32,000 nt of DNA from Candidatus Iainarchaeum sp. (GCA_028700115.1 JAQVTI010000002.1:1-32000); one strand, 5' to 3'. Numbered from the stretch's first letter, positions 1 to 8,402 are shown. Program-made: numbers and translations. Notes: a model not told the origin generated them from the letters alone.

Positions 1-288
1 AGTGAATGGTTAGAATATTCTGAAGGTGGTATTACTTCTTATGATATTTTGACTAATTTAAATAGTTTAAGTTATAAAGATGTTTTTTTAATAAATAAAA
101 ATTATGATACTAGTGATGGAATTGGTGTTTTTTATAGTGATAGAGGGGATAATATGGGTGATCGTGCCTTTCTTGTGGGTGGTTATTGGAGCATTGGTTC
201 TTATGCCGGAGTTCTATCTCGGCATTTGAACACTGGTCCTTCGTCTCGGTACTCTTACTTCGGTTTCCGGTGTGTAGTAGTTCCATAA
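1..288 (+). CDS. DGR target (variable) protein, C-terminal FGE/C-type-lectin-fold domain; 5' end lies outside the window
   Basis: Frame 1 is open from base 1, so the ORF-track TTG at 49 is internal. The C-terminus RAFLVGGYWSIGSYAGVLSRHLNTGPSSRYSYFGFRCVVVP matches the GGxW...GFRC pattern of DGR CLec/FGE-type variable regions. The VR sits at the extreme C-terminus. Confidence 0.85.
   Translation, partial: SEWLEYSEGGITSYDILTNLNSLSYKDVFLINKNYDTSDGIGVFYSDRGDNMGDRAFLVGGYWSIGSYAGVLSRHLNTGPSSRYSYFGFRCVVVP
162..282 (+). repeat. DGR variable repeat (VR)
   Basis: Colinear with TR at an offset of 1077 bp, with no indels. There are 15 mismatches, 14 opposite TR adenines (VR 184, 191, 194, 201, 202, 223, 233, 235, 244, 245, 250, 254, 256, 259) and one C-to-T at 246. 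Confidence 0.9.
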
Positions 289-321
289 AAAAGGATTTGA
301 TATTTACCCATCTTGTATTTT

Positions 322-360
322 GACGGGATAGACGGCCAGACGGCAAGACGGGTCAGACGA
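322..360 (+). repeat. Five tandem (A)GACGR units with 8-9 nt period; G+C-rich island 34 nt downstream of the target stop codon
   Basis: The sequence reads gacggg ata gacggc ca gacggc aa gacggg tca gacga, with GACG starting at 322, 331, 339, 347 and 356. It is about 64% G+C by my count, in a genome that is otherwise extremely AT-rich. Confidence 0.7.
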
Positions 361-381
361 AGTTGTTAATGCTTGAAACTT

Positions 382-426
382 GCAAAAATTTGTCCTCTTG
401 CCGTAAGGCAAGGTTCAAATTTTTGC
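382..426 (+). other. Long interrupted hairpin with GTAA (GNRA-type) tetraloop, between VR and orf122
   Basis: The outer stem gcaaaaatttg (382-392) pairs perfectly with caaatttttgc (416-426). The inner stem cttgcc (397-402) pairs with ggcaag (407-412) around the loop gtaa (403-406). Confidence 0.6.
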
Positions 427-479
427 TAAAGCTTTTTGAAAGTAAGGCTTATTTCTAATATTTTTTAAAAGATGATTTG

Positions 480-848
480 ATGAAACTTGAAAAAAATGTA
501 ATTTATTTTACTGGTTATATTGAAATAAATGAACTTGTGTGTAATTTTTTAAAAGAACTTGATGATTTGCAAAATTTTCAAAATAATTTTATTATAATAA
601 ATCTTAAAAATAAATGTGTTTGTTTAATTGAAAATTTTTCAAAAGGTTATTCTAGATTTTATAAAAAAGATAAATGTTTTTTTTATTCTAAATCTAAAGA
701 TAATCTTTCAGAAATTATCTCAAATTTACTTTTATTATATAAATTTGATATTTTTACAAAAGAACAATTTGATAGATATGTTTATTTATTTAATTTGAAA
801 TTTTCTATTTTTAATGGTTTATTAAAAAAATTTGAAAAAAATGAATAA
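480..848 (+). CDS. Hypothetical protein inside the DGR cassette (122 aa from the ATG), function unknown
   Basis: The ORF runs 477/480-848 and its stop lies 2 nt before the avd ATG at 851, implying an operon with avd. I recognise no motif in the sequence. Confidence 0.5.
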   Translation: MKLEKNVIYFTGYIEINELVCNFLKELDDLQNFQNNFIIINLKNKCVCLIENFSKGYSRFYKKDKCFFYSKSKDNLSEIISNLLLLYKFDIFTKEQFDRYVYLFNLKFSIFNGLLKKFEKNE

Positions 849-850
849 AT

Positions 851-1183
851 ATGTTATCTGATTTAAAACTTTATAATGAAACTTATAATCTCATATTATG
901 GTTATATCCTATTTTTAAAAAATATCCTAAATCAGATAAATATAGTCTTGGTAAAAAACAAAAAGATATTTTATTAGAGGTTATGTCTGATATTATATTA
1001 TTTAGTAAAAATAATAATTTAGATTATCTTAAAAAAATTGATTTAAATTTAGAACTTTTAAGAATTTCTTTTAGGCTTTCTAAAGATTTGAAAATAATAA
1101 ATTTTAATAAATATGAAATTATTTCCAAAAAAATAACTTCATTAGGTTCTTTAGTTGGTGGCTTGATTAAGAAATATTTATAA
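851..1183 (+). CDS. avd: DGR accessory variability determinant (Avd), four-helix-bundle family
   Basis: The protein is 110 aa and predicted all-helical. N-terminal YNETYNLILWLYPIFKKYPKSDKYSLG resembles the Avd / 23S-rRNA-intervening-sequence protein family. It sits immediately upstream of TR and the RT. Confidence 0.75.
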   Translation: MLSDLKLYNETYNLILWLYPIFKKYPKSDKYSLGKKQKDILLEVMSDIILFSKNNNLDYLKKIDLNLELLRISFRLSKDLKIINFNKYEIISKKITSLGSLVGGLIKKYL

Positions 1184-1238
1184 ATTGTTTATAGTATATA
1201 CATTTGTCTTAAAAGACAAAGGTAGTATACAGTAAATT

Positions 1239-1359
1239 TCGTGCCTTTCTTGTGGGTGGTAATTGGAACAATGGTTCAAATGCCGGAGTTCTATCTCGGA
1301 ATTTGAACAATAGTCCTTCGAACCGGAACTATAACATCGGTTTCCGGTGTGTAGTAGTT
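1239..1359 (+). repeat. DGR template repeat (TR)
   Basis: This is the non-coding copy of VR. Read in the target frame it gives RAFLVGGNWNNGSNAGVLSRNLNNSPSNRNYNIGFRCVVV, with 10 AAY codons. It contains 28 adenines, 14 of which are substituted in VR. Confidence 0.9.
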
Positions 1360-1569
1360 TTTTCCTTTTAGGTTAAATTATGAGTAATTATATTTAAGGA
1401 TATAATTAGTATTTTTAAAAAACTACATCTGTATAAACCTGATTTGTGTTTTATTTTTAAAACACCTTTTGGAAATACCAAGAGTTTAAGTCAAAAAATT
1501 TTTTTAAAATTATAATTTTTAGTAGTTTTTGATAAAATGAAATTAATTATAATTTTCTTTTGATTTTTT

Positions 1570-2631
1570 ATGAAGTCATATAATAATTTGTGGTCTGAAT
1601 TTATTTCTTTTAGAAATTTATTTCTTGCTTTTAAAAAAGCAAGAAAAGTAAAACCTAATTCTAAACAAGTTTTAGATTTTTCTTTTAATTTAGAAAAAAA
1701 TTTATTTTCTCTTCAAAAAGAATTAATTGAAAATAAATATTCTGTAAGTGCTTATAATGTTTTTACTATTTTTGAACCTAAAGAAAGGATAATTAAATCT
1801 TTGCCTTTTAAGGATAGAGTTGTTCAACATGCTTTAATAAATATTATTGAACCAATTTTTGAAAAATCTTTTATTTATGATTCTTTTGCTTGTAGAAAAA
1901 ATAAAGGTATTCATTTTGGATTAAATCGATTAAAAAAAGTAATTCAAAATAAATCTTGTCTAAAATATTTTTTAAAAGCAGATATTAAAAAATATTTTTT
2001 TTCAATAGATCATTCTATTTTAAAAGAAATTATTTTTAAAAAAATCAAAGATAAATCTCTTCAAAATTTAATATCCATAGTTATAGATAGTGATTGTTCT
2101 AATTTATCTATAAATAAAGGTGTGCCTATTGGTAATTTAACTTCTCAGTTGTTTGCAAATATTTATCTTAATGAATTTGATCAATATATAAAACACAATT
2201 TATTTGTTTCTAAATATTTTAGATATGTAGATGATTTTTTAATATTTTCTAATTCTAAAAAAGACTTAAATAAAATTTTATATTGCTGTCGTGTTTTTTT
2301 AAAAAAAGAATTAAAATTAAAAATTCCTTTTAAGAAAGCAAATATTTATTTAACTAATAATGGAGTTGATTTTATTGGTTATGTTATTTATCCAAATTTT
2401 ATTAAAGTTAGAACTAAAAGTTTAAAAAGATTTTATAAGGTTTCTAAAAAAAATATTTATTTATATGATATTGACTATATTTCTAAAGTTCAACTTGAGT
2501 CTTCTATTTGTTCTTTTTTAGGTTTTTTTAAATTTTCTAGTTCTTATAATGCTGTAATAAATATTTTTAATAATAATATTATATTTTATAATTATTTTTA
2601 TTTATTTAATAAAATTTATTTTAGTTTTTAA
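1570..2631 (+). CDS. DGR reverse transcriptase
   Basis: The 353-aa protein has RT motifs: PKERIIKSLPFKDRVVQHAL, FLKADIKKYFFSIDH, GVPIGNLTSQLFANIYL (the DGR-type IGxxxSQ signature) and FRYVDDFLIFS (YxDD). It starts 210 nt downstream of TR. Confidence 0.9.
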   Translation: MKSYNNLWSEFISFRNLFLAFKKARKVKPNSKQVLDFSFNLEKNLFSLQKELIENKYSVSAYNVFTIFEPKERIIKSLPFKDRVVQHALINIIEPIFEKSFIYDSFACRKNKGIHFGLNRLKKVIQNKSCLKYFLKADIKKYFFSIDHSILKEIIFKKIKDKSLQNLISIVIDSDCSNLSINKGVPIGNLTSQLFANIYLNEFDQYIKHNLFVSKYFRYVDDFLIFSNSKKDLNKILYCCRVFLKKELKLKIPFKKANIYLTNNGVDFIGYVIYPNFIKVRTKSLKRFYKVSKKNIYLYDIDYISKVQLESSICSFLGFFKFSSSYNAVINIFNNNIIFYNYFYLFNKIYFSF

Positions 2632-3148
2632 GATAAGAAGTTGTCATTTTCTCAATAATCTTGTTAATTTCTTTTTTTCCTCTTTCTATTTTATAAAAAG
2701 AAAGTGCATTTTCTTTATTATATTTATTTTTTCTAATAACTTTAATATCTAATTCTTTAATAATTTCTTTTTTTTTTTTTTTGTCAATAATTTTATTAGA
2801 TACAATATTTATAAAATAATTATTTTCCCCTTTTTTTAAATACCAGTTTTTTGAAATTTTATTAATTTGATCTGAACAGTTTAAAGTTAATAGCATTTCA
2901 GTAAATCTATTTTTTGATATATTAATTTTATCTATAAATTTAGAATATGTGATATATATCGCATAATTTAGGTGTATTTTGTTGTATATATGTGTGTTTG
3001 GGACAATAAATATTTCTATTTTATGATTTTGGTTATTTTTTATGTTTTCAATTCTTTTTAAATAGTTTTCTATATTATAAATATCTATTGTACAAAATAT
3101 ATTTTCAATATAATATTTTTTGTTATTAATATTAAATCTTTCTCTCAT
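2621..3148 (-). CDS. Hypothetical protein; possible Cgi121-like KEOPS subunit
   Basis: The protein is 175 aa. The segment FTEMLLTLNCSDQINKISKNWYLKKGENNYFINIV resembles, from memory, the Cgi121 motif E-I/L-L-x-x-x-S-G-x-R-Q-I-x-x-A-I-x-x-x-G followed by a beta strand. The match is weak. Confidence 0.3.
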   Translation of the reverse strand: MRERFNINNKKYYIENIFCTIDIYNIENYLKRIENIKNNQNHKIEIFIVPNTHIYNKIHLNYAIYITYSKFIDKINISKNRFTEMLLTLNCSDQINKISKNWYLKKGENNYFINIVSNKIIDKKKKKEIIKELDIKVIRKNKYNKENALSFYKIERGKKEINKIIEKMTTSYLKN

Positions 3149-3197
3149 AATAAAATAATATGATCGTAACTGTTTTAAAATTTATAGGTGAACTAAC

Positions 3198-3593
3198 ATG
3201 GTTGAATGGAGACAAATTTCTAAAAGAAAAAAAACTGGTGGAATCAATAATGCAGTAAATGCAAAAACAAAGTCTTTAAGTAATAAAGGTGGAACTTTTG
3301 TAAAGACAACAGTAAATGATGTTGAAAAAAGATTTCAAGAAAGAACTATTGGTGGGAATAAGAAAGTTAAACTTTCCCAAACAAATATTGCTTTAATTTC
3401 TATTGCAGGAAAATCTAAAAAGGTAAAAATTTTAGATGTTTTAGAAAATGAAGCAAATAAACATTTTGTAAGGCAAAAAGTTATTACAAAAGGGTGTATT
3501 ATAAAAGTAGATATTGATGGAAAAGAAGAAAAAGCAAAAGTTACTTCTAGACCAGGTCAATTTGGACAAGTTTCTGCTATTTTAGTTAAATAA
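3198..3593 (+). CDS. rps8e: 30S ribosomal protein S8e (eS8)
   Basis: Diagnostic segments are WRQISKRKKTGG, ERTIGGNKKVKL, KKVKILDVLENEANKHFVRQKVITKG and KVTSRPGQFGQVSAILV. A GGTGA motif lies 7 nt upstream of the ATG. Confidence 0.9.
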   Translation: MVEWRQISKRKKTGGINNAVNAKTKSLSNKGGTFVKTTVNDVEKRFQERTIGGNKKVKLSQTNIALISIAGKSKKVKILDVLENEANKHFVRQKVITKGCIIKVDIDGKEEKAKVTSRPGQFGQVSAILVK

Positions 3594-3602
3594 ATTTAAT
3601 TT

Positions 3603-4154
3603 ATGTTTTCTAAATTTAAACAAACTTTAAAAACAGATTTTAATAATAAAAAAAAAAGATTAGTTTCTCTTTATTTTTTATTTCTTTTTCTATTTTTCTT
3701 TATTATATTTTTTTTATTATTTTCAAAAACTTTTATTTATAGTTATATAAATTATTTTTATGGTATTTCTTCTTTTTTCATAATCAAAAATATTTTTCTA
3801 ATTAGTTCTAGTTTTGTTTTTGATAGTTTGAATAATGTTTCTATTATTTTAATTTCTTCTTTAAATTATCCTGTTTTTATTACTTTTTTATGTACTGGTA
3901 TACTTGAACTTAGTTTAATCTTTTCTGCTATAGTGTCTTCTTTTAATTTTTCTATTATAAAAAGATTAAAAGGTTTATTTTTAGCTTTATTTGTTGTTAT
4001 TATTTTTAATATATTTAGAATAAGTATAACTATTTTTATTATTACAAAATTTAATTTAGGTATTGCAAATTTAATGCATGGTTTTTTATTTAGATTATTT
4101 ATAATTATAATTGTTATTGGTACATATTATTTTTGGACTAAGAAAATAAAATAA
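3603..4154 (+). CDS. Exosortase/archaeosortase-family integral membrane protein (small Art-like)
   Basis: The 183-aa polytopic protein has FLCTGILE (Cys97), IFNIFRI (Arg139, 42 residues after the Cys) and LMHGF (His159). This fits the Cys/Arg/His catalytic pattern and the spacing of archaeosortases. Confidence 0.55.
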   Translation: MFSKFKQTLKTDFNNKKKRLVSLYFLFLFLFFFIIFFLLFSKTFIYSYINYFYGISSFFIIKNIFLISSSFVFDSLNNVSIILISSLNYPVFITFLCTGILELSLIFSAIVSSFNFSIIKRLKGLFLALFVVIIFNIFRISITIFIITKFNLGIANLMHGFLFRLFIIIIVIGTYYFWTKKIK

Positions 4155-4538
4155 TTATTTATTTTCTTTAATAATTTTTTTAACTTGAGAAATAGTTGCG
4201 TATTCTAATGGATTAATATTATCTATAATATATTTCATTTCTTTTAAGTCTTCTTCTTTTGCAAATTTTTTTGAAAAAAGTTCTAAAGAATGTTCAAGGT
4301 GTTCTATTTTTTTTTCAATATTATCCATTCTTTTTGTAATGTCTTTAATCTCTTGAAAGTTTAGTCCTGTACTATTATTTGTAGTTTCTGTTTTTGATGC
4401 AATTTTTTTATTTAAAACAAGTATATTTCTTCCCAAGATTTTTTCATTATGAACTAAATATTTTATTTTTTGTCTTAATACTAAAAGACTTGATTGTAAG
4501 GCTTTAATATCTTGATATATTCCAGATTGTTCAGGCAT
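4155..4538 (-). CDS. Hypothetical coiled-coil protein
   Basis: The 127-aa protein is heptad-like and K/E/L-rich, with no motif I recognise. It is convergent with the archaeosortase-like gene with zero spacing. Confidence 0.5.
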   Translation of the reverse strand: MPEQSGIYQDIKALQSSLLVLRQKIKYLVHNEKILGRNILVLNKKIASKTETTNNSTGLNFQEIKDITKRMDNIEKKIEHLEHSLELFSKKFAKEEDLKEMKYIIDNINPLEYATISQVKKIIKENK

Positions 4539-4656
4539 ATTTAATCTTTTTTATTTTTCTTATTTAATATATATTGTATATTTTCTTTTAAAGCTTTTTC
4601 TTTTTCTTTTTTTAGTTTCGCGTAATTAATTTTATTCAGTTATTAAATTAAATACC

Positions 4657-4664
4657 TTTATAAA
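4657..4664 (+). promoter_or_regulatory. Candidate TATA box for the 4720 gene
   Basis: The sequence is tttataaa, 56 nt upstream of the ATG. A GGAGGT motif lies just upstream of the start. TATA-like strings are frequent in this AT-rich DNA. Confidence 0.3.
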
Positions 4665-4719
4665 TACTTTCTCTCTATATATTATTACAAACCACATTTG
4701 GTTTTTGGAGGTATAATTT

Positions 4720-5124
4720 ATGAAAAAAGTGTTTTTTATTTTTATGATTTTATTAGTTTCTTTATTTTCAGCATTTATTTTTGCAGAAGATTTTGATATT
4801 ACTGATGTTTCATATTCTTATGTTACTTATGATTATCCAATATATCCAAATGTAAGTTATCAAAGAAATTATTCTCAAGCAGGTTATGATTATATAAATA
4901 CATATAATTCATATGCTACAATAAATCCATATTCTGGAACTTATTATAATTCTTATCCAGCATATAATTATTATGCTTATAATAATTATCCTGTATATAC
5001 TTATTATCCTACACATAGTTCGTATATAACTCCAGTTTATTCTTCTTATACAAATTATTATCCATATAATTCTAATAATTTATCTTATTCAAATGGAAAT
5101 TCTTATGTTTCTTTTACATGGTAG
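4720..5124 (+). CDS. Secreted Tyr/Asn/Ser-rich low-complexity protein
   Basis: An N-terminal signal-like segment (MKKVFFIFMILLVSLFSAFIFA) is followed by a mature region with 31 Tyr by my count and almost no charged residues. A GGAGGT SD is present. Confidence 0.7.
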   Translation: MKKVFFIFMILLVSLFSAFIFAEDFDITDVSYSYVTYDYPIYPNVSYQRNYSQAGYDYINTYNSYATINPYSGTYYNSYPAYNYYAYNNYPVYTYYPTHSSYITPVYSSYTNYYPYNSNNLSYSNGNSYVSFTW

Positions 5125-5174
5125 TTTTTATTTTTAAAAAATGTTTTTTTTAATTTATTAATGTGTGATTTAAA

Positions 5175-8100
5175 ATGAAGTTTAAAATTTATTTAATATT
5201 TATTATTTTAGTTTTTATATCAAGCACACTATGTGCTTCATATATAGGTTTTGAATATACTGAGGTTAGAAGTACTAGTTATTATACTTTTTCAAATACC
5301 CAATATTCAAATTACTATGAACCAATTGATTTAAGATTTTCTGCATATTCATCAGGTTTTAATAATTATGTTCCAGTCAGAGTAACTCCAAGAGTTTATG
5401 GGGTTCTGCCAAATGGGCAATTAAACTTTGTTTATACTCTCCCAACTTCTTCATATTTATTATATCCAAACCTTCCAATTTCATATACTTATAATAATTT
5501 ATTTTATTTTGACCCAGAATATCAATTTTATGAAATAAAATTAGATATTGTAACTACAGATGGTGTATATTCAGATACAGATACATCTTATGTTTATTTT
5601 GAAGAAAATGGAACTTCAGGTAATTCTGGAAATTCTGGTAATACAAATGATCTTGAAGTTATAGATTGTTCTAAATTTTCTTTATCTGGATTTTATGATA
5701 TTTATTTAGAGGAAGATAAAGAAGATACCTATGATTTATATATTTATAATTCTGTTGATTTCCCATTAGATATTTTATCTGTTATAACAAATGATCTTTC
5801 TGAACTTGATGTTGAAGATATAACTTATCCTTATACAATTTCTTCTTATCAAACAAGAAGTGCTCAAATTGATTTATTAGCAGATACAGTTTCAGATGAT
5901 TATTCTTCTTTTATGGATGTTTATGTGACTGCAAAATACGGAGATTTAGTTTGTAATAAAGAATTTAGAGTAAACTATACAATTGAAGATAAAGAAAATC
6001 CTTCAACTGCGGATTGTTCTGATATAGATTTTGAAAATATATCTTTTGAGATTATGGAAGATTCAAGTGATAGATTTGAAATTGATATTACAAATAATTC
6101 TTATGATTATGAATTTGAGATAGAATCAGTTTCTATAAATGATTCTGAAAATTTAGATGTAGATGTTTCATATTATCCTTCAAGAATAAATGTTGATCAA
6201 ACAAGAACTTTAAAAATAAATGTTGATTCAGAAGAAATTGATTCAAGTACAACTGAGGAAATTGAAGTTAAAGTTAAAGGGGTTATGACTAGAGACGGAA
6301 GAGAAGATAAAACTTGTAAAGTAAACCAAGATTTTAGATTTAGAATAATTGATTCTGAAAATACCTCTGGTTTTGGAGAATGTTCTGATATTAAGATTTA
6401 TACTTCACAAATTTCTCAAGTAGAAAATATTTCTAAAGATTATTCTCTTCAAGATGGTTTTTATATTTATAATTCTTCAAATAAAGATTTTATTATTACA
6501 AACATAGTTTTTGATGATAGATCTAGTGATTATGATATTTCAAAAAATCCAATGTCTTATACAGTTAATGCTTTTTCAAAAAATTCACTTAATTTCAATT
6601 TAAAGACTTATGATGTTTTTAATGATTTATATAAATCTAAGGTAAATGTATATGGTAAGTTTGAAAATGGAGTAAGTTGTTTATATTCTGATATTTCAAA
6701 AGAGTTTAATATATATATAGGTAAAGAACAAAATCAATGTAGTTTAATTAAACCTGATAGTATAAATGTAAATGAAGGTAAAAATACTTTAAGAGTATAT
6801 AATAATTCTAATCTTGATTTTATTGTAAATGATGTTTTGAAATCTAATCTTTCTGATTTAGATATTGATGTAATTGACAATTCATTTACAATTAATAAAA
6901 ATTCATATAAAGATATTGAATTTGGAGTTTTAGGTAAATCTGGTTATGCTGAGCTTTTATATAAGGGTGGATTTGAAAATGGAGTTAGTTGTTCTTATAC
7001 AGATATTTCAAAGTCTATTTTAAAAAGTAATAATTATTATTTATCTGGTGATTGTGAATTTTCTTTTGATTTTCCAAAATATTTAACTTTAAATTCTAAT
7101 CAAGATATTAAATCTTTTGAAATTTTTTTTAAAAATAAAACAAATAAGTCTGGTTACATAGAATTAACTACAGATGGTGCTAATATTTCTCCTTCTTTTT
7201 TATATTTTTCAAGTTTTGAGGATTTTACAAATAATGTTTTTATTTCTGATTTTATTAATTCTACTATTATTAATTATAATATTAAATTAAGTGATTGCCC
7301 TAAAGTGAATTATTCTACTTTTTTAAAAAAAGAAATAATTTTAGATAATAGTTTAGAGTTATTGTCTTTTTCAAATGAAATTAGTTCTACAAGTAATCAA
7401 ATAGATACATCTGTTGTTTTAAGAAATAATTCTGATTTTTCAAAAACTTTTGTTGTAGCCCTTTCTGGTTTTCCTTCTAGTTTGTCTTATTTAGTTTCTG
7501 ATAATCTTAATTTTTCTAATAGTAATAATGTTTTTACAATTGCCCCACATCAAGAAAAGATTTTATATTTTAGAATAAATTCAAGTATTTTAACAAATAA
7601 TTCTTTTAATGGATTTTTTGAATTTTTTATAGATGATTCTTTAGTTTTGCAAAAGCCTTTAAAAATAACATTAATTTCAAATCATGTTGTTGAATTTTTA
7701 ATGTCTGTTGATGTTTTAGATTCTTCTAATAGTTTTTCTAAGTTTATTTCTATAGATGTTGTTAATAATTCTTTAAATGATATTAATTCTGTAATTGTAT
7801 TTAATAATCTTAAAGAAAATATGGATGTTTTAGGAGATGATTTGAATTTTTTTATTTTGAAAAATTCAAATATTATTAAACAATATGAAATTAAAAGTAG
7901 TAGTTTTTTTCCAAAGGATTATAATTTAGATGTTATGTTATATGATTTTGATAAAAATATACCTTTAGCATCTACAAATGTTGTTTTTAATAGAAAAGGT
8001 AGTTTATTTAATACAGGTTTTTTTTCTTTAGGCGTTTTTAATAGTATTACTTTGATTTTTTTGATAATTTTATTTTTAATAATAATTGTATATTTTATTA

Positions 8101-8402
8101 AAAAACATAAAAATATTATGCCTATTAAAAATATTTTTTTAAAAAGAAAAAATTCTTTAATTTTGGATGATTCTAATAATTTTAAAAAGATTGTTTTAGA
8201 TAAGAAAGATGTTTTAGATAAGAAAGATGTTTTAGATAAGAAAGATGTTTTAGATAAGAAAGATGGTTTTAAGTTAGTTTATGATTCTTTTTTAATTAAT
8301 AATAATTCTAATATCAAAAGAAAGTCTCTAAATATGGTTGATAATAAAAAAATGGTTTCTAAAAAGAATTTAGATAGTTTTAATTTTTCTAAAAATTTTT
8401 AG
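5175..8402 (+). CDS. Large surface protein: signal peptide, repeated Cys-bracketed modules, C-terminal TM helix and a Lys-rich cytoplasmic tail
   Basis: The 1075-aa protein has Cys pairs at 165/260, 281/381, 403/502, 522/606 and 627/708, with the recurring motifs CSD-I and ENGVSC-x-Y-S/T-DISK. There are many N-x-S/T sequons. A TM segment (GVFNSITLIFLIILFLIIIVYFI-KKHK) is followed by about 100 further residues. Confidence 0.8.
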   Translation: MKFKIYLIFIILVFISSTLCASYIGFEYTEVRSTSYYTFSNTQYSNYYEPIDLRFSAYSSGFNNYVPVRVTPRVYGVLPNGQLNFVYTLPTSSYLLYPNLPISYTYNNLFYFDPEYQFYEIKLDIVTTDGVYSDTDTSYVYFEENGTSGNSGNSGNTNDLEVIDCSKFSLSGFYDIYLEEDKEDTYDLYIYNSVDFPLDILSVITNDLSELDVEDITYPYTISSYQTRSAQIDLLADTVSDDYSSFMDVYVTAKYGDLVCNKEFRVNYTIEDKENPSTADCSDIDFENISFEIMEDSSDRFEIDITNNSYDYEFEIESVSINDSENLDVDVSYYPSRINVDQTRTLKINVDSEEIDSSTTEEIEVKVKGVMTRDGREDKTCKVNQDFRFRIIDSENTSGFGECSDIKIYTSQISQVENISKDYSLQDGFYIYNSSNKDFIITNIVFDDRSSDYDISKNPMSYTVNAFSKNSLNFNLKTYDVFNDLYKSKVNVYGKFENGVSCLYSDISKEFNIYIGKEQNQCSLIKPDSINVNEGKNTLRVYNNSNLDFIVNDVLKSNLSDLDIDVIDNSFTINKNSYKDIEFGVLGKSGYAELLYKGGFENGVSCSYTDISKSILKSNNYYLSGDCEFSFDFPKYLTLNSNQDIKSFEIFFKNKTNKSGYIELTTDGANISPSFLYFSSFEDFTNNVFISDFINSTIINYNIKLSDCPKVNYSTFLKKEIILDNSLELLSFSNEISSTSNQIDTSVVLRNNSDFSKTFVVALSGFPSSLSYLVSDNLNFSNSNNVFTIAPHQEKILYFRINSSILTNNSFNGFFEFFIDDSLVLQKPLKITLISNHVVEFLMSVDVLDSSNSFSKFISIDVVNNSLNDINSVIVFNNLKENMDVLGDDLNFFILKNSNIIKQYEIKSSSFFPKDYNLDVMLYDFDKNIPLASTNVVFNRKGSLFNTGFFSLGVFNSITLIFLIILFLIIIVYFIKKHKNIMPIKNIFLKRKNSLILDDSNNFKKIVLDKKDVLDKKDVLDKKDVLDKKDGFKLVYDSFLINNNSNIKRKSLNMVDNKKMVSKKNLDSFNFSKNF
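8193..8264 (+). repeat. Perfect 18-bp x4 tandem repeat (gttttagataagaaagat) encoding (VLDKKD)4 in the tail of the surface protein
   Basis: Read directly from the sequence: four identical units, in frame. Confidence 0.95.

Follow-up and report, generated by a model that had tools for sequence, protein, structure and literature searches.

Diversity-generating retroelements (DGRs) are, to our knowledge, the only natural system of targeted protein hypermutation known in prokaryotes, and those of DPANN archaea are thought to diversify surface proteins used for host attachment. In the DGR of Bordetella phage BPP-1 (mtd-avd-TR-brt), a target gene with a variable region (VR) at its 3′ end is followed by the gene of the accessory variability determinant (Avd), a template region (TR), a spacer and the gene of the reverse transcriptase (RT). 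In the RNA of this element, the template:primer duplex arises by pairing between the spacer and the 3′ end of TR (bioRxiv 10.1101/2023.10.23.563531; 8ub7 and following), a stem-loop just after TR binds Avd and a 3′ stem-loop binds RT (bioRxiv 10.1101/2023.10.23.563531). RNA elements resembling these have been reported from further phyla, Nanoarchaeota among them (Handa et al., bioRxiv 10.1101/2023.10.23.563531). The DGRs of Nanoarchaeota, other DPANN archaea and the candidate phyla radiation (CPR) (PMC4372165, PMC5006420, PMC5758913, PMC8144416) resemble the locus described here, which lies in a 32,000-nt stretch of Candidatus Iainarchaeum sp. (GCA_028700115.1, JAQVTI010000002.1:1-32000; hereafter the window, meaning this whole stretch), in having an ultra-small, low-GC archaeal host, a target ending in ..GFRC and of the C-type lectin (CLec)/formylglycine-generating enzyme (FGE) type, a type that is probable here, an accessory protein resembling Avd, and a hairpin located downstream of VR.

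The locus is a real and intact DGR that is very probably active, and we hold with high confidence that it is a genuine, currently active chromosomal element of an Iainarchaeota-related (DPANN) archaeon. As in BPP-1, the target with its VR, the accessory gene(s), TR, the spacer and RT follow one another in the canonical order, and all the defining DGR parts are intact except the 5′ part of the target gene, which lies outside the window. A preliminary description, made from the sequence alone, had called the element complete; this stands for the presence and order of the defining parts, but it is not strictly true inside the window, because the window edge cuts the target gene and leaves only its last 95 codons. 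The same description had rightly considered the class not to be new, since DGRs are already well documented in DPANN archaea, including the phylum concerned. The type of system is thus known, and the present copy is well preserved and shows signs of recent activity. The locus is ordinary in kind but unusually informative, being compact, intact and held at a conserved chromosomal position beside core genes, and it offers clear evidence that VR has turned over between genomes that are identical elsewhere.

VR and TR (Table 1) form a gapless direct repeat of 121 nt with 15 mismatches, 14 of which are located at TR adenines. Running the alignment returned exactly the 14 positions listed in the preliminary description, out of 28 TR adenines, and the translations of TR and VR quoted there, with 10 AAY codons in TR, proved right. 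By chance, 14 or more of the 15 mismatches would be at A with a probability of 1.5e-8 (binomial) or 7e-10 (hypergeometric), in keeping with the signature of adenine-specific mutagenic retrohoming that had been proposed; the fifteenth mismatch opposes TR C1323 to VR T246. The GC content of TR is 44%, against 23% for the window. Read in the target frame, 23 of the 28 TR adenines occupy codon positions 1 or 2, A-to-N substitution can never reach a stop codon, and the upper bound of protein diversity is ~4e13, with the 10 AAY and 3 other adenine-containing codons recoded. VR corresponds to codons 55–94 of the target fragment, in frame, and the sequences flanking VR and TR are unrelated from 283/1360 onward. 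The invariant 23-nt block at the 3′ end of VR and TR occurs just twice in the window, even when 3 mismatches are allowed, and no second VR was found in the 32 kb, the next best position agreeing at 42 of 93 non-A sites. The block and the unrelated flanks are consistent with a pair of initiation of mutagenic homing sites, IMH in VR and, in TR, a diverged IMH* that in DGRs determines the direction of transfer; in contrast to BPP-1, no GC14-type element accompanies it, VR and TR being identical up to 282/1359 and then unrelated. Exact-pattern scans of IMG/VR and of JGI metagenome contigs with the 23-nt block gave 0 matches each.

The target fragment alone (95 codons) has no Pfam match, and it is 42–45% identical to the C-termini of targets of 451–463 aa in related loci. 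Full-length related targets match the FGE-sulfatase/C-type-lectin-fold family PF03781 with 30.8 and 29.5 bits (cut-off 23.3), and those encoded at L007 3368–4723, L012 1364–2755 and L013 2141–3514 (the L-numbers being labels of related loci and contigs compared with the window) have an N-terminal hydrophobic segment with a weak Pilin_N match (PF07790, E 0.006–0.015). Because its full-length relatives carry these two kinds of match, the target is likely a surface-exposed protein of the CLec fold with a diversified ligand-binding tip, which would liken it to the C-type-lectin-fold target of BPP-1. The weak type IV pilin N-terminus of the related targets differs from what was reported for clade 5, in which archaeal targets usually have no recognisable membrane domain (Roux 2021, PMC8144416).

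Recent activity is seen when the window is set against a second assembly, GCA_028691725.1, whose contig JAQUYT010000034.1 (L001; 8,501 nt) starts at window position 158 and encodes an identical RT protein. From the end of VR onward the two sequences have 0 mismatches over 8,378 nt, whereas their VRs show 17 differences, namely 15 at TR-adenine sites, a C/T at 246 and a 1-nt deletion; across both VR versions, 19 of the 28 TR adenines are changed. The absence of any difference in a flank of this length, together with 15 adenine-site differences in VR, requires very recent VR turnover, and the preliminary view of the element as intact and recently active thus agrees with the intact open reading frames (ORFs) and with this pair of assemblies. 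A sister lineage, with an RT 65% identical, keeps the target, the extra ORF, Avd, TR, RT, the opposite-strand Cgi121 gene and S8e in the same place; there, all 4 differences between L003 and L004 in 8,369 nt are in VR, as are 12 of the 13 differences between L003 and L005 in 4,065 nt, 11 of these 12 being at TR-adenine sites. Moreover, several contigs of both lineages break at or within VR, as is expected of a polymorphic site. The control strain L173 (97.6% identical) differs from the window all along the locus, including at three TR sites, which is ordinary divergence, unlike the VR-restricted pattern. Together, these observations support an ongoing diversification of VR in the population.

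That the element is a fossil, with its parts still recognisable but its retrohoming ended and its VR/TR differences old, is very improbable. One of the two VR versions known for the lineage does carry a frameshifting 1-nt deletion, and one change in the window VR is not at an adenine; however, all the ORFs are intact, the catalytic motifs are present, the flanks show zero differences over 8,378 nt against 15 adenine-site differences in a 121-nt VR, and the sister lineage repeats the same VR-restricted pattern in four samples. We consider it equally improbable that the VR differences were not made by the RT and represent an assembly artefact (a chimeric consensus at contig ends) or inter-strain recombination. 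Neither process would be expected to place 15 of 16 substitutions at TR adenines, which make up 23% of the positions; besides, a chimeric consensus would itself need underlying VR heterogeneity, and the divergent strain L173 differs all along the locus and not in VR alone, even though the VR of L001 is located right where its contig starts and has an indel, and L093 resembles a collapse of the VR/TR repeat. In L093 (2521–3003; Ga0222667_1000053, a 62%-identical relative), the VR of the target runs straight into the post-TR spacer and both accessory genes are missing, for which either a misassembly that collapsed the VR/TR repeat or a genuine deletion by recombination could account.

The RT (353 aa) has its best match among all solved structures in bRT, the DGR RT of the Bordetella phage (8ub7_A, E 2.7e-49, residues 2–290), whereas other solved RTs reach 1e-18 (group II), 1e-16 (retron-type) and 1e-4 or worse (Drt). 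Its motif IGNLTSQLFANIY (IGNLTSQ) aligns to bRT I181–Q187, YVDD to the YMDD of bRT (D215/D216), LKADIKKYF to the D138 block and EPKERII to the fingertip residues R74/I76, so that both the catalytic and the fingertip motifs are conserved with BPP-1, and the DGR-type IGNLTSQ and YVDD motifs noticed in the preliminary description fall on the active-site motifs of bRT. NCBIfam has no DGR-RT model, and the class of the RT was judged by structure-database matches and motifs rather than by a formal tree; this comparison supports a place among DGR RTs, 30 orders of magnitude ahead of the RTs of group II introns and retrons. The best NCBIfam model is that of the group II RT/maturase (TIGR04416), which gives 143.9 bits where its cut-off asks for 300, and the Drt and retron models all score far below their own cut-offs. 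PADLOC returned generic RT matches and many DRT/UG models, with no specific defence family prominent. A comparison of 1–3300 with Rfam identified no RNA family, the sole matches being two sub-threshold chance ones, and group II intron RNA was absent even at E <=1.

An RT of another class (group II intron, retron, DRT/UG or Abi), with a coincidental TR/VR repeat, is suggested by the top NCBIfam model, by the many DRT/UG models listed by PADLOC and by the annotation of relatives as 'retron-type RT' in their source records, and yet its probability is close to nil: the scores against all three kinds of model lie under their cut-offs, the RT has just 353 aa, no intron or other RNA family is recognised in 1–3300, the bRT match stands 30 orders of magnitude above any group II, retron or Drt structure, and an Avd gene and an adenine-biased TR/VR pair lie beside the RT both here and in the relatives checked. 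As regards the first of these partners, ORF 851–1183 scores 86.6 bits with the NCBI equivalog NF033474 (cut-off 80) and 69.8 bits with PF22296 (cut-off 40), which turns the Avd-like protein of the preliminary description into an Avd above both curated cut-offs and a member of the same family as that of BPP-1. Its isoelectric point (pI) is 9.65, within the range of 9.5 +/- 0.7 reported for Avd proteins (PMC5758913).

The RNA was analysed through an alignment of the TR-to-RT region of eight lineages, with RTs 53–65% identical to that of the window, in which RNAalifold predicted four helices independently. Over 33 pairs, 92% of the cells are paired, against 46–54% when the partners are slid by 1–3 columns, a measure that is favoured by the derivation of the structure from the same alignment; this derivation does not explain the compensatory counts, with two-sided changes in 17 pairs where the slid partners give 1–5, and none of 500 shuffles matches any of the observed measures. 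The 3′ helix is 100% paired in the 8 lineages and has compensatory changes in 8 of its 9 pairs. According to duplexfold, the energy of the duplex between TR and the spacer is -9.7 kcal/mol in the window and -7.2 to -9.9 kcal/mol across lineages, and the minimum free energy fold of the window RNA as a single sequence contains the same pairing. The duplex between the region upstream of TR and the spacer reaches -13.0 kcal/mol in the window and -11.6 to -16.6 kcal/mol elsewhere, with changed sequences. In 6 of 7 lineages duplexfold finds the two long-range duplexes, and <=4% of shuffles reach their energies (<=2% for the upstream one).

These elements find a place in the BPP-1 scheme. The template:primer duplex and the Avd-binding stem-loop have counterparts within 1354–1426, the 'cPRT Stop' duplex (bioRxiv 10.1101/2023.10.23.563531) has its counterpart in the pairing of 1221–1232 with 1429–1439, and the position of the RT-binding stem-loop is matched by that of the 3′ stem-loop, whereas the spacer differs in length, with 210 nt here and 140 nt in BPP-1. 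Since RNA counterparts that covary are present and both duplexes are recovered, the comparison supports a BPP-1-like cis-priming with a start near GTAGTAG at the 3′ end of TR, and thereby the conservation in archaea of the mechanism whose RNA elements were seen by cryo-EM in BPP-1. With such a start, the last two TR adenines would never be transferred; the positions opposite TR 1353 and 1356, which belong to its final 9 nt, show no change in either VR version.

Taken by analogy with BPP-1, the element could operate as follows. The transcript of the region upstream of TR, TR itself and the 210-nt spacer would fold in such a way that the spacer pairs, through 1418–1426, with the 3′ end of TR (1354–1362) and, through 1429–1439, with 1221–1232. 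The RT, Avd and probably the second Avd-family protein (480–848) would bind this RNA, and the complex would prime cDNA synthesis in cis near the GTAGTAG of TR, which would be copied with misincorporation opposite adenines. The cDNA would then replace VR at the 3′ end of the gene encoding the C-type-lectin-fold protein, which has a pilin-like N-terminus in relatives and is presumably exposed on the cell surface. The outcome would be the recoding of the 10 AAY and 3 other adenine-containing codons into up to the ~4e13 variants mentioned above, with no stop.

Table 1. Coordinates of the parts of the retroelement in the window
Feature	Position	Strand	Basis or remark
Target gene, 3′ end	1–288	+	95 codons and TAA stop (286–288), open frame; 5′ part beyond the window
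Variable region (VR)	162–282	+	121 nt, aligned to TR without gaps; not the same in two assemblies that are otherwise identical
Invariant 3′ end of VR, IMH-like	260–282	+	23 nt, equal to TR 1337–1359; encodes ..GFRCVVV
About five tandem 8-nt units	322–362	+	GACGGGAT AGACGGCC AGACGGCA AGACGGGTC AGACGAAG; past the target stop
Inverted repeat capable of hairpin/cruciform	382–426	.	GC-rich core CTTGCC-GTAA-GGCAAG at 397–412
Extra accessory gene, 122 aa	480–848	+	Predicted four-helix bundle of the 23S-rRNA-IVP/Avd superfamily; fold, PF05635 sub-threshold
Avd, 110 aa	851–1183	+	NF033474 (DivGenRetAVD), PF22296 (bAvd)
Hairpin upstream of TR	1204–1219	+	RNA element
Strand GGTAGTATACAG	1221–1232	+	Pairs with spacer CTGTATAAACC 1429–1439 (duplexfold)
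Template region (TR)	1239–1359	+	Non-coding; between Avd and RT, in a 386-nt intergenic region
TR 3′ end GTAGTTTTT 1354–1362 paired with spacer AAAAACTAC 1418–1426	1354–1426	+	9-bp duplex, RNAalifold
Spacer RNA from TR to RT	1360–1569	+	210 nt; includes the 3′ stem-loop
Small hairpin	1364–1372	+	RNAalifold; inside the TR:spacer duplex
Stem-loop, 9–11-bp stem	1385–1408	+	RNAalifold; inside the TR:spacer duplex
3′ stem-loop, 9 bp	1509–1517/1545–1553	+	RNAalifold
DGR reverse transcriptase, 353 aa	1570–2631	+	PF00078, E 1.3e-28

The host of this DGR is a cellular archaeon and not a phage as in BPP-1. The window contains archaeal markers (S8e, Cgi121 and a ribosomal cluster from L3 to SecY), the identical RT carries the NCBI label '[Candidatus ainarchaeum sp.]', and among species representatives Candidatus Forterrea multitransposorum (phylum Iainarchaeota; complete genome of 839,632 bp) comes nearest. 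The gene after RT encodes Cgi121 (KEOPS) on the opposite strand and is convergent with RT, their 3′ ends overlapping by 11 nt (2621–2631), whereas a gap of 9 nt keeps them apart in the sister lineage. S8e starts 567 nt beyond the RT stop, and the ribosomal cluster L3-L4-L23-L2-S19-L22-S3 ... SecY runs from 8805, which corroborates the ribosomal neighbourhood claimed in the preliminary description. The RT has relatives spread over DPANN and CPR; the closest in IMG/VR are <=46% identical and the cellular ones of DPANN archaea 55–65% identical, and the low identity of the viral relatives argues against a recent viral origin.

The position of the locus bears on the possibility that the DGR belongs to an integrated virus or some other mobile element rather than to the chromosome proper of the host. 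Phages commonly carry DGRs, and in more distant relatives the cassette is found in varied neighbourhoods, including beside a transposase-like ORF in Forterrea. However, the flanks here are core genes, with Cgi121 overlapping the RT stop followed by S8e and the ribosomal protein cluster, a lineage with an RT just 65% identical has retained the insertion context, no close relative was found in IMG/VR (<=46% identity) and the exact IMH pattern is absent from it, so that a mobile carrier seems improbable. In Forterrea (L013, CP045477.1), the five-part cassette seen in the window is located at 2141–6017, beside the transposase-like ORF (1021–1983), and the words retroelement, reverse transcriptase and DGR are all absent from the text of the preprint on this genome (bioRxiv 10.1101/249516).

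A number of points weigh against reading the locus as a currently active DGR. Just two VR versions, both taken from assemblies and not from the reads of one sample, are known for this exact lineage; the C1323/T246 mismatch in the window is not at an adenine; the 5′ part of the target is outside the window; the hairpin past the target gene lies 100–115 nt from VR, outside the range of 4–34 bp reported for characterised DGRs, which makes its role in target recognition uncertain; and we know of no biochemical evidence for any archaeal DGR of this clade. Moreover, the VR of L001 (1–123) has a 1-nt deletion (TR CTCGGAATTTG versus CTCGACTTTG) that would frameshift the target; it is situated within 70 nt of a contig end and might represent a true but dead variant, slippage of the RT or a mistake of assembly.

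Two clade-wide features, the second Avd-family gene and the repeats with a hairpin after VR, set the locus apart from BPP-1 and are leads that bear on target recognition, the least understood step of retrohoming. The preliminary description had spoken of non-canonical parts; the extra gene and the repeat/hairpin do exist, but both are features common to a clade. The first of them, ORF 480–848, lies upstream of avd and encodes a protein with a pI of 8.8 and a PF05635 match (E 2.1e-5) that is under the cut-off, as are those found in 12 of 24 members of its family. Its AlphaFold2 model (pLDDT 89.4, pTM 0.82) has four long helices, and the best Foldseek matches of this model are pentameric 23S-rRNA-IVP proteins (2rld/2gsc, TM 0.8–0.9), followed by Bordetella Avd (4dwl/8ub7_B, TM 0.7–0.8). 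Direct sequence comparison with Avd was not significant, with a BLASTP E of 0.002 over 32 aa, an hhalign probability of 2.6% and no match to an Avd model, and PDB profile searches with the ORF 480–848 profile and with the Avd profile returned nothing significant. In an exhaustive search of 1.84 billion proteins, the ORF 480–848 profile matched 49 cluster representatives at E <= 1e-10, and the weaker matches are bona fide PF05635 proteins (E 1e-6 to 1e-13). Judged by its predicted fold and its profile matches, ORF 480–848 is a divergent paralogue within the Avd superfamily and not a member of the Avd family by sequence, a link drawn from the structure matches and from the grading into PF05635 proteins, not from direct sequence comparison. 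With the PF05635 family (2rld, 2gsc) it thus shares a predicted four-helix-bundle fold, and it differs in being a small divergent subfamily that is tied to DGR cassettes among the loci fetched.

In each of the close relatives, the complete Forterrea genome among them, a homologue of ORF 480–848 immediately precedes Avd. Strong matches are confined to this close clade, and the two matches beyond it are moderate (L105) and marginal (L026). The DGR of L105 (20–463) is GC-richer and has an RT 45% identical; there, the homologue is the sole accessory gene and occupies the position of Avd, which suggests that the subfamily can substitute for Avd. Tandem Avd-family genes such as those of the window contrast with the survey of Wu 2018, in which two avd genes were present in 1 of 372 DGRs (PMC5758913). 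The order avd-TR-RT (B1) also departs from the CPR set of the same survey, 90% of which is of type B3 (PMC5758913).

The second feature begins past the target stop with the tandem units, for which Tandem Repeats Finder (TRF) reports a period of 8 and 2.8 copies at 330–351. Every related lineage has an array of period 7–8 in the corresponding place, the unit of Forterrea being AGACGGCA, and we know of no description of 7–8-nt arrays as a cis element of DGRs. Of the 54 fetched loci in which a VR could be identified, 16 (30%) have an array (6–9 nt, non-AT) <=220 nt after VR, compared with 2.3% of control windows from the same loci (P ~1e-13), the control windows being mostly coding sequence and the TRF threshold lenient; under a strict TRF filter, ~27% of the related CPR/DPANN DGRs have an array after VR, an enrichment of ~12-fold over the controls. 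Arrays were located at L013 3564–3589, L003 310–325, L007 4774–4793 and L012 2787–2805, and further ones at L021, L023, L027, L045, L064, L083, L085, L101, L104, L121, L139 and L154. Two ways of accounting for the arrays were discarded: they are not restricted to loci with the extra four-helix gene, because 12 of 50 loci without this gene carry them, and a reading of the sequences showed that they are not LNLN codon repeats inside VR.

Downstream of the array, the inverted repeat folds as DNA with -14.9 kcal/mol (z = -6.8; 0 of 200 shuffles as stable), and equivalent GC-rich hairpins with different sequences are present in all 7 lineages (z -4.1 to -7.5). A hairpin after VR is an accessory, and not an obligatory, feature of the DGR family. 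In distant loci, a GC-rich hairpin comes directly after the array, in several cases with a GAAA or other GNRA-type loop and usually with a T-run, and this is the known DGR hairpin/cruciform (PMC3240598). The hairpin of the window is therefore probably its homologue, despite its distance of 100–115 nt from VR. The known DGR hairpins lie 4–34 bp downstream of VR and have a GRNA loop (Guo 2011, PMC3240598), whereas that of the window starts 100 nt after VR (its core at +115), has the loop GTAA (GNRA, not GRNA) and is separated from VR by the tandem 8-nt array, which also distinguishes it from the hairpin of BPP-1. In the DUSEL4 nanoarchaeal elements, moreover, the hairpin is inside the target ORF, while it is intergenic here. 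Look-ups with Avd and with the 98%-identical ORF yielded, for this strain, only Logan contigs that stop short of VR: three independent ones (L173, L002 and L175) start at window positions 399–444, inside the hairpin region or shortly past it; the inverted repeat and VR heterogeneity are both possible causes of these breaks.

The whole segment between VR and the accessory genes could be an undescribed target-site module of DGRs, with the array as a binding platform for pentameric proteins of the Avd family, a speculative idea that we regard as rather unlikely. In such a module, the IVP-like four-helix protein might read the target DNA while the canonical Avd holds the RNA or, alternatively, the two four-helix-bundle proteins might form a mixed oligomer.

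Between S8e and the ribosomal cluster, ORFs 4720–5124 and 5175–8402 have no Pfam match, and the label of envelope genes given to the neighbourhood in the preliminary description was not confirmed. The product of ORF 4720–5124 (134 aa) is rich in Y, N and S and has a hydrophobic N-terminal segment, and that of ORF 5175–8402 (1075 aa) has a signal-like N-terminus, a C-terminal hydrophobic segment and the repeat DKKDVL in four copies; both are possibly, though unverified, surface proteins.

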